From IMG/VR virus record IMGVR_UViG_640753024_000006, positions 1 to 27,584 of that record: 27,584 bases of DNA; one strand, 5' to 3'. Numbering within the stretch: position 1 is the first letter of the stretch; every line of letters begins with the position of its first letter. This document shows positions 4,434-26,538 of this stretch, in pieces. The DNA comes from a virus (Duplodnaviria; Heunggongvirae; Uroviricota; Caudoviricetes). The notes under the pieces are model-generated. The model ran no database searches and was not told the origin of the DNA. It saw only the letters and a list, made by a program, of their open reading frames with translations. A program made the position numbers and the translations under genes.

Positions 4434-4625
4434 TTAAAGACCTGCCGGGATTTCGTTATTATCCTGGTGAATAACTTTATCGACCGGGTAACAGTTACCG
4501 GGAATTTTCTGTTCGGTTGCTGCAGTCATACATTCCTGCATTGTCCTGTGAACACTGACTGCAATATCAACTGGCTCTCCGGAAACAAGATAAACTGTCA
4601 GAACAAGCGCAAATGCTGAATTCAT
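4434..4625 (-). CDS. Small putative secreted/periplasmic protein (63 aa)
   Basis: Start ATG at 4625 with AAGGA RBS; hydrophobic N-terminal signal-like segment; start overlaps the stop of the upstream gene as ATGA (coupling). Confidence 0.5.
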   Translation of the reverse strand: MNSAFALVLTVYLVSGEPVDIAVSVHRTMQECMTAATEQKIPGNCYPVDKVIHQDNNEIPAGL

Positions 4626-4810
4626 TGTGCACATCCTTTTGGCATCAGACGTAAACGAGCCAGCATTGAAACAATGCATATTTTATTTAATAGCTCCCGT
4701 TCTTGTTTTCTCTTGTTAATGGCATCTTCAGTAAATACTGGGTTACTGATAGTGACACCAATTTCAAAACAACCTTCAGACGTATTAACGTTTGGTAATA
4801 ACGTTTCCAT
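4622..4810 (-). CDS. Small hypothetical protein (62 aa)
   Basis: ATG at 4810 with GAGGA RBS 8-9 nt upstream; stop overlaps the next gene's start (ATGA). Confidence 0.45.
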   Translation of the reverse strand: METLLPNVNTSEGCFEIGVTISNPVFTEDAINKRKQERELLNKICIVSMLARLRLMPKGCAQ

Positions 4811-4827
4811 TATCGCGTCCTCAACAA

Positions 4828-4975
4828 TGAATTTTGTGATGCGGTGCCTGGTGCCTCCAGGTGACGTTAACCAGTTAACAATTAACGCCGGATACAGAGA
4901 ACCCACCCATAACACTGTTTTTGGTTTTAACTGTTCCGCGTGCGCTTAGCCGCATTCACCGCATCACAAAATTCA
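4828..4975. repeat. Perfect 19-bp inverted repeat pair (tgaattttgtgatgcggtg / caccgcatcacaaaattca) separated by 110 bp
   Basis: Arms at 4828-4846 and 4957-4975 are exact reverse complements; the left arm abuts the RBS of the 4810 gene. Confidence 0.8.
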
Positions 4976-5373
4976 CTTTAAAAAGGGCGGCAGAGCAGTC
5001 ACGGAGTAAAACTGATACCGCCAAACGCCACCAGAAAATTGATAACAGAGGGCGTTGCAGCGGGGTTGTCACTTAAGCGTATGGTCAACCTGACAACCCG
5101 GTGTCCTCAACGGGGAAGGAATAACCCCGCCATACTTACCGCCGCGCCATTTCGCGGAGTGCCACAACCGGAAGCGCACGGTCGAATTAAATTTAACGAC
5201 ACCGTACAGAGAGACCAATTTCGCCGTGCGCTTTCGCGTTATGCTCTGGCTTTTCAGGGATATATCCTTTCAGTAAACTGTCAGTACCGGATTCTTATCC
5301 GTGTCCGGCGCACGACCACACGTGGCAGCGTGTTGGTCTCCATTTTTAACCCAGAACCTCAATGGAGGATAAA

Positions 5374-5583: not shown

Positions 5584-6222
5584 TTACCAGTCAATCCAGA
5601 GCGGACCGTGTTCAGCGTAAATATAACTGTACACATCCAGGTTATATTTGTGGTCTGTTAAGAACAGGCCGCAAATACATGCCGAAGCTTCCAGGGCAGC
5701 GGCTCTGTTACTGAATAACCATGTAGCAACATTCCAGCGTTTTTCTGCATCCCAGTCTTTCTCAAGGCCTGATACCATGAAGAAACCGTTAGTGTTGCCA
5801 TCAAATAATTCTGTTTCCAGATTTTTAAGCAATGCCTGATGGACTCTTGCCAGGTATTCCGCCGGAATTTCGCCACGAATTCTGATGAGATTGTCATAAA
5901 CAAACATGTTCCCCGCATATGGCGATTTTTCTTTCTTGTTTTTTAAACCAGCATCATGAGCAAACTGATCAATTTCTTCTTCCGTTGGTTTCGTATTGAT
6001 GTTTTGCGCTGTCGTTTCTGCAATTTTATTTGCCACACTATCTGAGTCGTGTTTATTTACAGACGCACAGAAATACAATCCGGTAAACGCATCGCGCACA
6101 TTACGAGCTATATTATCAGTGTCTTTTTTCGTTACCGATTCCAATGCAAGTTCGTTCAGACGATGACGAAGTGTGTGTGCTGCAATCTCCTGGATTGAAG
6201 TAGGTAAATCTTTAAATTCCAT
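5584..6222 (-). CDS. Hypothetical protein (212 aa), AT-rich, in the position lambda/Rac uses for sieB/kil-type genes
   Basis: GAGG RBS before ATG at 6222; longer in-frame start at 6234 overlaps the upstream stop as TGATG; no transmembrane segments or recognised motif. Confidence 0.6.
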   Translation of the reverse strand: MEFKDLPTSIQEIAAHTLRHRLNELALESVTKKDTDNIARNVRDAFTGLYFCASVNKHDSDSVANKIAETTAQNINTKPTEEEIDQFAHDAGLKNKKEKSPYAGNMFVYDNLIRIRGEIPAEYLARVHQALLKNLETELFDGNTNGFFMVSGLEKDWDAEKRWNVATWLFSNRAAALEASACICGLFLTDHKYNLDVYSYIYAEHGPLWIDW

Positions 6223-6677: not shown

Positions 6678-6956
6678 TTAGGGAAACTGGCGTCTTGCGT
6701 GGATCACGTTTACTACTTCAACGCTTGATGTTGTTACGCGGTATAGAATTATATAGTTAGGGTGGGCTACAATCTCACGCAAGCCAGGTACTCTGTCGCT
6801 TGGTGGGTATAAATACGGATGTTCGGATAACGGCAGCACACAACCCCTTAATCGCTGCCATAAGCGTTCAGCCGCATCTATGTCGAAACGAGCAATATAA
6901 CTAGTTATATCATCTAGGTCGGTATCTGCGCTTTCAAGCCATAACACGGGTAACAT
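6678..6956 (-). CDS. Type II toxin, RelE/ParE superfamily
   Basis: About 92 aa; C-terminal IILYRV...VEVVNVIHARR is typical of ParE/RelE toxins; ATG at 6956 directly follows the antitoxin stop (6958-6960). Confidence 0.7.
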   Translation of the reverse strand: MLPVLWLESADTDLDDITSYIARFDIDAAERLWQRLRGCVLPLSEHPYLYPPSDRVPGLREIVAHPNYIILYRVTTSSVEVVNVIHARRQFP

Positions 6957-6957
6957 T

Positions 6958-7149
6958 TTACTGCTTGCTCCGTTCCTTGCGCATCTTAGCAAAGCGTTCT
7001 GCCATTCTGCGCTCAATTTCGTCATGGGGAATTGCTGGGCGCGGATCTGCAAGGCTCGCTGCTACTTTCGCACGCAGCCATTCGTTGTAACTGTTTTCTT
7101 GTTCAATGGTTTCAAATTCAGAAACCATTGGTGAAAGGGCTCTATTCAT
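6958..7149 (-). CDS. Putative type II antitoxin (family uncertain, ParD/stability-determinant-like)
   Basis: 63-aa acidic/basic ORF immediately upstream of and abutting the toxin; GGAGGA RBS before ATG 7149. Confidence 0.6.
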   Translation of the reverse strand: MNRALSPMVSEFETIEQENSYNEWLRAKVAASLADPRPAIPHDEIERRMAERFAKMRKERSKQ

Positions 7150-7169
7150 GTTTCCTCCGGTTTTATAAC

Positions 7170-7541
7170 TCAGGCGCGGCGGCATTTTTGCGCCGCAATC
7201 CATCTCGCTATGAGATCTTCCATTGATTCTTTTTTCTGCTTTAACTCGCTGATTATCTGGCGTTGCTCATCCTCAGGGAAGGCTGAAAAAATCTGCAATA
7301 ACTCCAGTTGATTAGACGTTAACCCTGCATGTGGTGGAGAAACCCCCGGTTGCTCTGAGTATTCCGCATCCAGATACCCTTCCGGCATCCCGTATGTTTG
7401 CTCTATTCTTCTGGCAGCCTTTTCTCCAAACGAGGCTCTCCCACTCATTAGTTGAGATAGGTAGCTCTTCTCTTTGGGTGGCAGAGTTTTATCTTTAAAC
7501 CACTCCTTGAGACGTAAACGGCGAATTTCTTTTTTTTGCAT
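7170..7541 (-). CDS. Prophage repressor, DicA/RacR-like (HTH_XRE N-terminus, DicA-like C-terminus)
   Basis: N-terminal HTH-like segment (SYLSQLMSGRASFGEKAARRIEQTYGM) and C-terminal LELLQIFSAFPEDEQ, similar to DicA as I recall it; divergent from a Cro-like gene. Start taken at ATG 7541; the longer track ORF would run into the operator region. Confidence 0.7.
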   Translation of the reverse strand: MQKKEIRRLRLKEWFKDKTLPPKEKSYLSQLMSGRASFGEKAARRIEQTYGMPEGYLDAEYSEQPGVSPPHAGLTSNQLELLQIFSAFPEDEQRQIISELKQKKESMEDLIARWIAAQKCRRA

Positions 7542-7639
7542 GCGGTAATTATCTTTAGTAATCACTAAACAAGCAAATACTTGACTTAATGGTTTATTAA
7601 ACACTAAACTCACAAAAAAAACACTAAACCGAGGAAGGT
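7542..7639. promoter_or_regulatory. Divergent immunity-region promoter/operator with three direct CACTAAAC repeats
   Basis: CACTAAAC at 7563-7570, 7602-7609 and 7622-7629; TTGACT -35-like hexamer at 7581-7586; lies between the divergent repressor and cro-like starts. Confidence 0.55.
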
Positions 7640-7942
7640 ATGACATTAAAAGAGTTTATTAAATCATTAAGGGTTGGTGATGCTAAGAAATTCGCGGCCA
7701 GACTTGGTGTATCGCCATCTTACTTATCGCAAATGGCGTCTGGACGAACAGCTATATCTCCAACCCGCGCCCTTATGATCGAATCTGCGACGGAAGGCCA
7801 AGTAAGTAGGGCGGAGCTACGACCCCATGATTGGGAGCTTATTTGGCCTGAGTATGCGAGCGGCATTCGTTTGGGGCAAACACATGTAGTTCATGCTGAA
7901 GGTGATTGTAGTGCATGCTTATCTGATGGAGTTGATTCATGA
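7640..7942 (+). CDS. Cro-like HTH regulator (YdaS-like)
   Basis: 100 aa; HTH-like AARLGVSPSYLSQMASGRTAISP; GAGGAAGG RBS; divergent from the repressor. Confidence 0.65.
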   Translation: MTLKEFIKSLRVGDAKKFAARLGVSPSYLSQMASGRTAISPTRALMIESATEGQVSRAELRPHDWELIWPEYASGIRLGQTHVVHAEGDCSACLSDGVDS

Positions 7943-8364
7943 AAATCAAGCATGAACACATCCGCATGGCGATGAATGCCTGGGCGCATCCGGACGGTGA
8001 AAAAGTTCCGGCAGCTGAAATAACCCGGGCTTATTTTGAGCTGGGTATGACGTTCCCGGAACTGTATGACGACAGCCATCCGGAAGCCCTGGCTCGCAAT
8101 ACTCAGAAAATTTTCCGCTGGGTGGAGAAAGATACTCCTGATGCGGTTAAAAAAATTCAGGCGTTGTTACCGGCTATCGAAAAAGCAATGCCACCTTTGC
8201 TGGTGGCCAGAATGCGCAGCCACAGTTCAGCTTATTTTCGGGAGCTGGTGGAGATGCGGGAACGACTGGTGAGAGACGCTGATGATTTTGTCGCAGTGGC
8301 GATCGCTGGTTTCAATCAGATGAATCGTGGTGGCCCGGCAGGAAATGCCTTGGTGATGCACTAA
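7939..8364 (+). CDS. YdaT-like protein (CII-position; Rac YdaT family is reported toxic when derepressed)
   Basis: 141 aa; ATGA overlap with the cro-like stop; position and size match Rac ydaT; family assignment from memory. Confidence 0.5.
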   Translation: MKIKHEHIRMAMNAWAHPDGEKVPAAEITRAYFELGMTFPELYDDSHPEALARNTQKIFRWVEKDTPDAVKKIQALLPAIEKAMPPLLVARMRSHSSAYFRELVEMRERLVRDADDFVAVAIAGFNQMNRGGPAGNALVMH

Positions 8365-11751: not shown

Positions 11752-11794
11752 GCAACCATTACCCCCTGTGATGTAATTGTGGGGTAATGGTTGC
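11752..11794. repeat. Perfect 14-bp inverted repeat hairpin (gcaaccattacccc ... ggggtaatggttgc), 15-nt spacer, no flanking T-run
   Basis: Exact reverse-complementary arms at 11752-11765 and 11781-11794, between DUF4406 and the next gene. Confidence 0.75.
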
Positions 11795-12330: not shown

Positions 12331-12540
12331 AAACGGTTTGCAGTGAAAGGGGAGTTAAGTAGAATTGCTGCGGGTGCTTGAGGCTATCTGTCTCAGGCAT
12401 GAACACCAAAGGCAGATAGAGAAAAGCCCCAGTTAACATTACGCGTCCTGCAAGACGCTTAACATTAATCTGAGGCCCAATCTATGTCTCACAAATGTAG
12501 GTTAGCCTCTTACGTGCCGAAAGGCAAGGAGAAGCAGGCT

Positions 12541-12696
12541 ATGAAGCAGCAAAAGGCGATGTTAATCGCCCTTATCGTCATCTGTTTAACCGTCATAGTG
12601 ACGGCACTGGTAACGAGGAAAGACCTCTGCGAGGTACGAATCCGAACCGGCCAGACGGAGGTCGCTGTCTTCACAGCTTACGAACCTGAGGAGTAA
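12541..12696 (+). CDS. hok: Hok/Gef-family type I toxin (HokD/RelF-like)
   Basis: MKQQKAMLIALIVICLTVIVTALVTRKDLCEVRIRTGQTEVAVFTAYEPEE matches the Hok-family pattern (TM helix, conserved C..R..G.EVA.F) and my memory of RelF/HokD; AGGAGA RBS; structured leader upstream. Confidence 0.8.
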   Translation: MKQQKAMLIALIVICLTVIVTALVTRKDLCEVRIRTGQTEVAVFTAYEPEE

Positions 12697-18566: not shown

Positions 18567-18642
18567 GGCCCTTTAGCTCAGTGGTGAGAGCGAGCGACTC
18601 ATAATCGCCAGGTCGCTGGTTCAAATCCAGCAAGGGCCACCA
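18567..18642 (+). tRNA. tRNA with anticodon CAU (Ile2/lysidine type, ileX/ileZ-like, or Met)
   Basis: Cloverleaf folds by hand: 7-bp acceptor GGCCCTT/AAGGGCC, D-arm GCTC..GAGC, anticodon loop CTCATAA, T-loop GGTTCAAATCC, CCA end. Confidence 0.8.
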
Positions 18643-18643
18643 A

Positions 18644-18720
18644 CCGTCACCAGTTCATCAGGAAAGAGCGTCAACCCTTTAAGTTGAGTGTGCGAGGTTC
18701 GAGTCCCCGGTGGCGGTCCA
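18644..18720 (+). tRNA. Aberrant tRNA-like element (anticodon-loop CCTTTAA, apparent anticodon UUU with C at position 33); possibly a degenerate tRNA
   Basis: Acceptor CCGTCAC/GTGGCGG (one G-U), T-loop GGTTCGAGTCC and CCA end, but non-canonical C33 and a mismatched T-stem. Confidence 0.35.
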
Positions 18721-18722
18721 GT

Positions 18723-18798
<76 letters not shown>

Positions 18799-18801
18799 TA
18801 T

Positions 18802-18876
<75 letters not shown>

Positions 18877-21519: not shown

Positions 21520-21720
21520 TGGGGTGGCCTGCCACGGGGCGGAAGGCGCGCGGGTTTTCGCTATTTATGAAAATTTTCCGGGGAAAATCATGTCGGTACT
21601 TCTCGAACATAACTATTTGTTTTTTCTAATATCGAATCCGTAAAAGGTCCGACATGAAAACGCCTAAAAAAGTCATTTTCGGGCACTTTCATGTCGGACC
21701 CTGTGTTTGTTGTGAGACTG
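21520..21720 (+). other. Lambda-like cos site (cosQ-cosN-cosB) upstream of Nu1
   Basis: gggtccttccggtg (cosQ-like), then GGGCGGAAGGCG followed by cgcgggttttcgctatttatgaaaattttccgg, matching my memory of the lambda left end after cosN; 14-bp inverted repeat ggtccgacatgaaa / tttcatgtcggacc at 21646-21700 where lambda cosB has R sites. Confidence 0.7.
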
Positions 21721-25954: not shown

Positions 25955-26538
25955 TGGCATTCAGAATGAGTGAACAAGCACGGACCATAAAAATTTATAA
26001 TCTGCTGGCCGGAACTAATGAATTTATTGGTGAAGGTGACGCATATATTCCGCCTCATACAGGTCTGCCAGCAAACAGTACCGATATTGCACCACCAGAT
26101 ATTCCTGCTGGCTTTGTGGCTGTTTTCAACAGTGATGAGGCATCGTGGCATCTCGTTGAAGACCATCGGGGTAAAACGGTTTATGACGTAGCGTCAGGGG
26201 ACGAGTTATTTATTTCTGAACTCGGTCCGTTACCGGAAAATGTTACCTGGTTATCGCCGGAAGGGGAGTTTCAGAAGTGGAACGGCACAGCCTGGGTGAA
26301 GGATACGGAAGCAGAAAAACTGTTCCGGATCCGGGAGGCGGAAGAAACAAAAAACAACCTGATGCAGGTAGCCAGTGAGCATATTGCGCCGCTTCAGGAT
26401 GCTGCAGATCTGGAAATTGCAACGGAGGAAGAAACCTCATTGCTGGAAGCCTGGAAAAAGTATCGGGTGTTGCTGAACCGTGTTGATACATCAACTGCAC
26501 CTGATATTGAGTGGCCTACGAACCCTGTCAGGGAGTAA
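25954..26538 (+). CDS. tfa: Tail fibre assembly chaperone Tfa
   Basis: 194 aa; start overlaps the stf stop (TAATG); conserved Tfa C-terminal region (...[25 protein letters not shown]...). Confidence 0.85.

Follow-up and report, generated by a model that had tools for sequence, protein, structure and literature searches.

A perfect 19-bp inverted repeat lying between the small RNA gene dicF and the toxic gene dicB very probably specifies a helix in the dicBF transcript that is a substrate of RNase III, whose cuts would yield the 72-nt form of DicF and separate this small RNA (sRNA) from the dicB message. The repeat was studied within a stretch of viral DNA of 27,584 nt, referred to here as the window, and it sits inside the dicBF operon of a Qin-like lambdoid prophage. 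An initial annotation, made from the letters alone, had offered two readings of the repeat: paired DNA sites for a regulator, or the two sides of an RNA stem acting on a ribosome binding site. The feature is real and the idea of an RNA stem is supported, but the RNase III site at this place is already known from Escherichia coli K-12. The novelty is low, since the feature matches a reported site in a well-studied operon.

The repeat search places TGAATTTTGTGATGCGGTG at 4828–4846 and CACCGCATCACAAAATTCA at 4957–4975. The arms are 19 nt each, 100% complementary and separated by 110 nt, exactly as first described, and they make up the longest exact inverted repeat in the 27.6-kb window among those with arms within 300 nt of each other. 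The remark that such a repeat is improbable by chance holds as well, with a rough analytic expectation of ~3e-5 (27,584 positions × 300 spacings × 4^-19). No second copy of the 19-mer exists within the window when up to 3 mismatches are allowed, and matches in 100 shuffles were 0. The left arm was correctly noted to lie near the ribosome binding site of the 62-aa open reading frame (ORF) starting at 4810, 5 nt separating the arm from GAGGA at 4818–4822. The placement of the repeat at the head of the operon was mistaken: it is operon-internal, downstream of DicF and its terminator, and the initial annotation had missed DicF. Two other local hairpins of the window are found at 21646–21700, with 25-nt arms 84% complementary around a 5-nt loop, and at 11752–11794, an exact 14-nt repeat with a 15-nt loop. 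In the order of the minus-strand RNA, the features of the region are the following.

5169–5236, minus strand: second, imperfect hairpin upstream of DicF (inverted repeat I2, fold).
4985–5037, minus strand: DicF small RNA in its 53-nt form, immediately 5′ of the repeat in the transcript.
4980–4984, minus strand: U-tract of the DicF intrinsic terminator, read from the sequence.
4957–4975, minus strand: upstream (5′) strand of the predicted helix, the right arm (repeat search, fold).
4847–4956, minus strand: enclosed domain with P2 (4941–4954), the variable P3 (4889–4938), P4 (4864–4888) and P5 (4847–4861), from the folds and RNAalifold.
4828–4846, minus strand: downstream (3′) strand of the predicted helix, the left arm (repeat search, fold).
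4818–4827, minus strand: helix extension and dicB Shine-Dalgarno sequence GAGGA (4818–4822), from the sequence and duplex prediction.
4622–4810, minus strand: dicB, the gene to which this leader belongs, encoding a cell-division inhibitor of 62 aa (Pfam PF05358, RefSeq).

The Rfam model of DicF (RF00039) matches 4985–5036 on the minus strand with 76.4 bits against a gathering score of 48, and the 62-aa ORF starting at 4810 is DicB (Pfam PF05358, 137 bits, E 1.4e-40). With DicF and the DicB start at these positions, the repeat fills the DicF-dicB spacer. An E. coli chromosome that matches a 281-nt query (window 4780–5060) at 100% identity has dicB annotated in RefSeq, and the same 281-nt region is 97.9% identical to K-12 with no gap. 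By annotation mapping, MG1655 dicF (1649382–1649434) corresponds to window 5037–4985, and MG1655 dicB begins from 1649609. At gathering thresholds, Rfam gave DicF alone in the dicF-dicB region. Both arms lie outside the DicF model, which ends at 4985, the arms starting at 4975; among the DicF forms only the 72-nt isoform would take in 10 nt of the upstream arm.

The ORF after dicB is YdfD-like (DUF1482). Upstream on the minus strand there are a 216-aa ORF, a DUF1391 (ydfA-like) gene and a PaaA2/ParE pair. The pair consists of a ParE-family toxin at 6678–7052 (minus strand, PF05016) and a PaaA2 antitoxin at 6958–7203 (minus strand, PF21217), above which lies a 158-aa ORF at 7170–7646 (minus strand) with no Pfam match. 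The gene order over 6678–7646 of the minus strand, just upstream of DUF1391/dicF/dicB, resembles what we take to be a paaR2-paaA2-parE2 module, with PaaR2 putative. A scan for promoters and terminators did not exceed the number of sites seen in shuffles, and no site fell at the arms. A 97-aa ORF with a GTG start (4622–4915), in frame with dicB, was considered and rejected; the length of the interior varies from 101 to 124 nt among relatives and shifts out of frame, and the interior is therefore taken as non-coding. Elsewhere in the window, Rfam places a sok antitoxin RNA (RF01794, 117.7 bits) at 12372–12546 on the plus strand, which suggests a hok/sok-type toxin-antitoxin locus in the prophage, and an IS009 RNA (RF02111, 225 bits) at 26297–26495 on the plus strand. 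Four tRNA genes, Met-CAT, Lys-TTT, Thr-TGT and Gly-TCC, were found by ARAGORN at 18567–18876 (plus strand), of which Rfam called three.

The dicF-dicB spacer is widespread: among 5,426 complete E. coli genomes 4,652 carry it, the copy number per genome having a median of 2 and a maximum of 9. It is also carried by phages such as mEp460, Tritos and PPompW prophages. Scanning genome contigs for a DicF motif gave 6 loci, all of Escherichia/Shigella-like sequence, 2 of them in metagenome-assembled genomes (MAGs) labelled Veillonella and Collinsella. The latter two (L005, Veillonella parvula; L006, Collinsella sp.) contain the exact DicF motif and an E. coli-type dicF-dicB spacer, and are probably mis-binned contigs of E. 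coli prophages. Similarly, Aeromonas phage AP1 (H61, MT713136.1, 249906–250152) and Actinobacillus phage vB_Apl-pPE4 (H65, 5840–6004) hold copies near-identical (98%) or close (88%) to the E. coli spacer, with recorded hosts that are non-enterobacterial; contamination, misassembly or recent transfer are possible sources of these copies.

RNase III needs about two helical turns of double-stranded RNA, and its cuts have a geometry that leaves a 2-nt 3′ overhang. Folding of the minus-strand RNA, which had been proposed as a check of the stem, was carried out on 5050–4790. The arms are paired in the minimum free energy (MFE) structure of −96.3 kcal/mol (z = −5.4), and 0 of 200 shuffles fold as well. 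In the MFE and centroid folds the arm helix closes a multibranch domain of ~110 nt with four hairpins. The helix is predicted to run over 21 continuous pairs, of which 19 are Watson-Crick and are followed by a G·U and an A-U, and past a 1-nt bulge the duplex prediction adds 7 more pairs to a total of 28 bp and −35.2 kcal/mol. At the helix bottom the U-tract of the terminator plus two A (UUUUUAA) is predicted to pair with UUGAGGA, including the dicB Shine-Dalgarno sequence. The extended helix thereby reaches the ribosome binding site in the model, in keeping with the first suggestion that a stem might act on it. Such a helix offers the ~20 bp or more of near-continuous double-stranded RNA by which an RNase III substrate can be recognized, and both arms belong to the same transcript, lying on the minus strand between DicF and dicB in the sense orientation. 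Transcription across the K-12 dicF-dicB spacer has been reported in a 2023 study of the operon.

The processing itself is documented for K-12. In the passages of PMC5069750 and PMC9438474 that cite Faubladier et al. 1990, the 72-nt DicF is given as an RNase III product. Because the K-12 spacer aligns gaplessly, counting from dicF at 1649382–1649434 puts the 3′ end of the 72-nt species at window 4966, position 10 of the upstream arm. If the ends of the 53-nt DicF are taken as uncertain by a few bases, the range becomes 4962–4966, still in the upstream arm. RNA sequencing of an rnc deletion listed a ‘dicF-dicB intergenic’ site at 1649470, with ~0 reads in the wild type and 26 in the mutant, which was flagged as known (PMC5371410 Table S1). 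This position corresponds to window 4949, between the arms, and at 26 reads the site has a coarse resolution. The dicA-dicF-dicB intergenic regions are also listed among RNase III substrates in a review (PMC2777011). For the window, the dependence on RNase III and the 72-nt end would thus be carried over from the literature on a K-12 copy of 97.9% identity.

The 2023 operon study also found RNase III to be involved, describing only a site upstream of DicF that gives a 190-nt species; a site downstream of DicF is absent from its account. The upstream site may be recognized in the window. The imperfect hairpin at 5169–5236 has 20-nt arms 80% complementary, folds with −33.6 kcal/mol (z −2.1) and is conserved with K-12. 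Counting 190 nt back from 4981–4985 leads to ~5170–5174, which is in the 3′ arm of this hairpin, and it is therefore probably the other RNase III site of the operon, where the 5′ end of the 190-nt DicF would be made.

Taken together, a course of processing can be proposed. Read-through past the DicF terminator would produce a transcript with both arms, and the arms would pair into the 21-bp helix, or 28 bp past the one-base bulge, taking in the U-tract and the dicB Shine-Dalgarno sequence. The 72-nt DicF would then receive its 3′ end from an RNase III cut in the upstream arm. With that end at 4966, a 2-nt 3′ overhang would put the partner cut in the downstream arm near 4836/4835. This putative second cut would leave a dicB-ydfD mRNA with a leader of ~25 nt, and the enclosed domain would be excised. 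As an outcome, the fate of the sRNA DicF would be uncoupled from that of the toxic dicB message.

As to which way cleavage acts on dicB, our best guess is that it uncovers the ribosome binding site. In the model, the Shine-Dalgarno sequence is unpaired with a probability of 0.10 in the read-through RNA versus 0.48 after the predicted cut, and only a weak duplex (−10 kcal/mol) would be left between the tail of DicF-72 and the new leader. An exposing cleavage, as at the lambda N leader, is favoured for these reasons. A decay of the dicB mRNA triggered by the cleavage is a real alternative. The occlusion of the Shine-Dalgarno sequence is not conserved in relatives upstream of Rha/Ash-type or tciA genes.

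The same pairing could be viewed in another way, in which the helix is a pure translational lock that hides the dicB ribosome binding site in read-through transcripts and cleavage by RNase III is incidental. This is in line with the extension that pairs the U-tract with GAGGA, with the modelled low accessibility of the site in read-through RNA, and with kilR-type copies, the helix of which ends within a base or two of the Shine-Dalgarno sequence. However, the pairs that cover the Shine-Dalgarno sequence are weak U·G and U-A pairs, and 19–21 perfect base pairs are not needed for hiding a site, whereas about two helical turns are needed by RNase III. Moreover, the reported RNase III-dependent 3′ end falls inside an arm. 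A lock of this kind without a role for the cut is accordingly thought quite improbable.

Comparison of relatives provides the evidence on what has been selected. Scanning viral contigs with the interior motif gave at least 120 loci, which with the earlier loci make 125 instances, 92 unique sequences and 44 arm types. The search for conservation, also proposed at the outset, had a clear result: a closing stem is present in every one of the 125 instances, and complementarity is kept though the arm sequence differs. A nine-pair core of the closing stem is predicted by RNAalifold in all 44 arm types. Its column pairs covary. Among the 44 arm types, one pair is AU in 26, UA in 17 and GC in 1; another is CG in 28, UA in 11 and UG in 5; a third is GC in 33 and AU in 5. 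Over the full structure, 83.9% of the cells are paired, compared with 75.3% in shuffles (0 of 500 reach it) and 37–42% with the partner columns slid, and the covariation score is 0.238 versus 0.134. P3, P4 and P5 covary too in the 44 relatives. The two smaller palindromes pointed out between the arms are real, and prove to be the RNA hairpins P5 (CCUGGAGGCACCAGG at 4847–4861) and P4.

The arms themselves change in a manner expected of paired RNA. Relatives keep the complementarity and not the sequence, for instance GUUGUGGUG/CACCACAAC, AUUGCGGUG/CACCGCAAU and AAUGCGGUG/CGCCGCAUU. In the 22 long-stem arm types, perfect pairing is departed from by G·U 25 times, by A·C 3 times and in another way 2 times, and these arm types include two compensatory double changes, U-A to C-G and A-U to G-C in L052. 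K-12 has U·G and G·U at two adjacent sites that are C-G and G-C in the window, and the relatives show each of the four possible combinations; the two adjacent changes of K-12 are wobble-paired as RNA and mismatched as a DNA repeat. An excess of 25 G·U over 3 A·C, G·U being tolerated in RNA only and on one strand, argues for selection on the dicB-sense transcript and against a site at the DNA level. This shows that the helix is maintained by selection at the RNA level, on the dicB-sense strand. Among the collected instances, the long helix is seen only in copies after DicF or a DicF-like terminator. Of the two original readings, the RNA stem is the one that stands, with arms that pair in the minus-strand RNA and a pairing kept in relatives by compensatory and G·U changes.

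The other reading, in which a regulator binds the arms as a pair of DNA sites and the 110-bp spacer is looped, is in agreement with the exact symmetry of this one copy and with nothing else. The arm sequence itself is not conserved in relatives, only its complementarity, and the one-sided changes, 25 G·U on the sense strand against 3 A·C, are not what a DNA site would favour. With up to 3 mismatches allowed, the window contains no further copy of an arm. The arms are internal to a transcription unit and not at a promoter, the promoter-like site upstream of the ydfA-like gene being more than 1.5 kb away. Looping is for these reasons hardly credible.

It is also extremely unlikely that the arms are the terminal inverted repeats of a MITE-like element inserted between dicF and dicB. 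The one observation in this direction is that homology to kilR-type phages starts exactly at the left arm, query position 47 corresponding to window 4826. However, no target-site duplication or direct repeat flanks the arms, and all the collected long-stem copies, whether dicB-, kilR- or Rha/Ash-type, directly follow DicF or a DicF-like terminator and are not scattered. The number of up to 9 copies per genome fits multiple lambdoid prophages, and the G·U asymmetry again argues for selection on RNA.

The domain enclosed by the helix has relatives of its own. In a permissive Rfam search of 801 nt, RF02076 (STnc100) matches it over the full length, the outer stem and P5 being in register, at a score of 38.4 bits (E 1e-6) that stays below the gathering score of 47. 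No STnc100 match at or above the gathering score was obtained in 13 loci with diverse copies of the domain. In the opposite direction, a covariance model (R1) was built from the spacer family and canonical STnc100 copies were taken from phage contigs; R1 matches these copies full length with 36–52 bits (E 1e-7 to 1e-11). In the window R1 finds one copy of the domain. A second match at 7964–8102 on the plus strand, with 14 bits and E 0.12, was taken as noise. The matches in both directions identify the enclosed domain as a diverged relative of STnc100/PasD, a family of prophage sRNAs; this relationship may be new. STnc100 and PasD have been reported as prophage sRNAs, PasD being recovered with Hfq by RIL-seq, and a connection between STnc100 and the PasD sRNAs, which belong to prophages of pathogenic E. 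coli, is drawn in a 2026 preprint that leaves the function open.

STnc100/PasD and the window element have in common a closing stem topped by GGUG/CACC, an AAU, P2, a variable P3, P4 and P5 (CCNGGAGGCACCNGG). They differ in the length of the closing stem, ~8 bp in canonical STnc100 and 21–28 bp in the window element, and in the terminator, which canonical STnc100 has and the window element lacks. The location is different as well: the window element is in the early leftward operon, while canonical STnc100 is reported near the Q/late region and downstream of stx2.

The domain interior is better conserved in sequence than the arms, and P2, P4 and P5 are near-invariant across dicB-, kilR-, tciA- and Klebsiella-type contexts. 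The gene that follows the domain is dicB in 64 instances and a KilR-like ORF of 73 aa in 15, a tested representative of which had no Pfam match. It is an Ash/Rha-type gene in 7 and the TerB-type tciA of P1-like phages in 5, with 1 further tciA-like ORF. Some copies precede small ORFs lacking an assigned identity, and in 29 instances the ORF search found no downstream gene; in the type inspected (L016-like) the domain leads to a DicF-like sRNA and a terminator. At such loci (L016 3493–3656, L018, L022, L035 and similar), the domain with the stem GUUGUGGUG/CACCACAAC precedes a DicF-like sRNA (GCUGUGUGUAGUC...GGUACCAGC...) that has its own terminator, the order of sRNA and domain being swapped relative to the window. 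One phage contig (L139, 2323–3353) carries four tandem STnc100-like domains in ~1 kb (R1, 36–44 bits).

In phage P7 (L008, 3001–3116) and phage D6 (L014, 1501–1621), the domain lies between tRNA genes and tciA/terB in the region of the ban operon, where it carries no annotation. The closing stem of these two copies has 9 bp only. A stem of 9 bp is too short for RNase III. With nothing beyond the nine-pair stem in the P1-type copies, cleavage cannot be a function common to the whole family. Processing by RNase III would then be a speciality of the DicF-adjacent lineage, and the domain itself must have another role.

It can be asked whether the main purpose of the helix is to release the enclosed domain, so that the operon has a third functional product, the DicF-72 end and the dicB leader being by-products. 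The domain would in this case be an STnc100/PasD-like RNA with an action of its own, for example as a regulatory RNA associated with Hfq. This reading shares the processing step with the explanation preferred here and differs only in what matters among the products. The interior that is more conserved than the arms, with P2, P4 and P5 near-invariant across gene contexts, is in its favour, as are the homology to STnc100 in both directions (38.4 bits to RF02076, 36–52 bits with R1) and the fact that STnc100 and PasD are prophage sRNAs, PasD having been recovered with Hfq by RIL-seq. The interior is moreover non-coding, with a length of 101–124 nt that varies out of frame. On the other hand, the K-12 interior gave ~0 reads in the wild type versus 26 in the rnc mutant, which suggests that the excised piece does not accumulate, although this is a weak counter-argument. 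The window copy also lacks a terminator such as canonical STnc100 carries, and a literature search, which yielded reviews only, found no published transcript or sRNA named for the dicF-dicB spacer. We regard excision as the main purpose as rather unlikely.

In its full form, that reading would have the spacer carry an independently functional RNA of an STnc100/PasD superfamily, which acquired the long helix beside DicF for excision by RNase III, so that three products arise from the operon. The module would precede host-takeover genes of the dicB, kilR, tciA/terB and Rha/Ash types in many lambdoid and P1-like phages. This is a tentative proposal that we regard as rather unlikely. The helix that releases the 72-nt DicF and parts it from the dicB message is the explanation retained here.

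Our analysis explains a striking repeat as an RNase III helix of the textbook type that parts the sRNA DicF from the message of the toxic DicB, in an operon that has been studied since the late 1980s. The additions, which were not found in the literature examined, are modest: the link to STnc100, the selection at the RNA level, and a stem that is lengthened only in the DicF-adjacent lineage. The enclosed domain recurs directly upstream of dicB, kilR and tciA/terB, and dicBF offers a well-studied, inducible operon in which the function of STnc100/PasD may be probed.

The nearest known system is the dicBF operon of the K-12 prophage Qin, which is the same locus, with the 72-nt DicF end in the upstream arm and the RNA-seq site between the arms. 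The arms of the window are Watson-Crick in 19 of 19 pairs, whereas those of K-12 Qin have two adjacent wobble pairs. The window operon also differs in having the 216-aa ORF in place of K-12 ydfB/ydfC and in the adjoining paaR2-paaA2-parE2-like module.

A further likeness is found in the lambda N leader, where cleavage by RNase III raises the translation of N. That site is reportedly the subject of work by Kameyama et al. in 1991 and by Wilson et al. in 2002. By analogy, both cases would involve a long hairpin cut in an early leftward lambdoid transcript, a short way ahead of the ribosome binding site that serves a small gene of regulatory or toxic function. In lambda the hairpin is simple and lies beside nutL, while the window helix closes a four-hairpin domain and follows the terminator of an sRNA.

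Intercistronic stems cut by RNase III are also known from T7 R1.1, rpsO-pnp and metY-nusA, where they separate products of different stability. The latter two are also listed as RNase III sites in the review cited above (PMC2777011). Unlike in these three systems, the product upstream of the dicBF stem is an sRNA that acts in trans, and a conserved structured domain lies within the stem.
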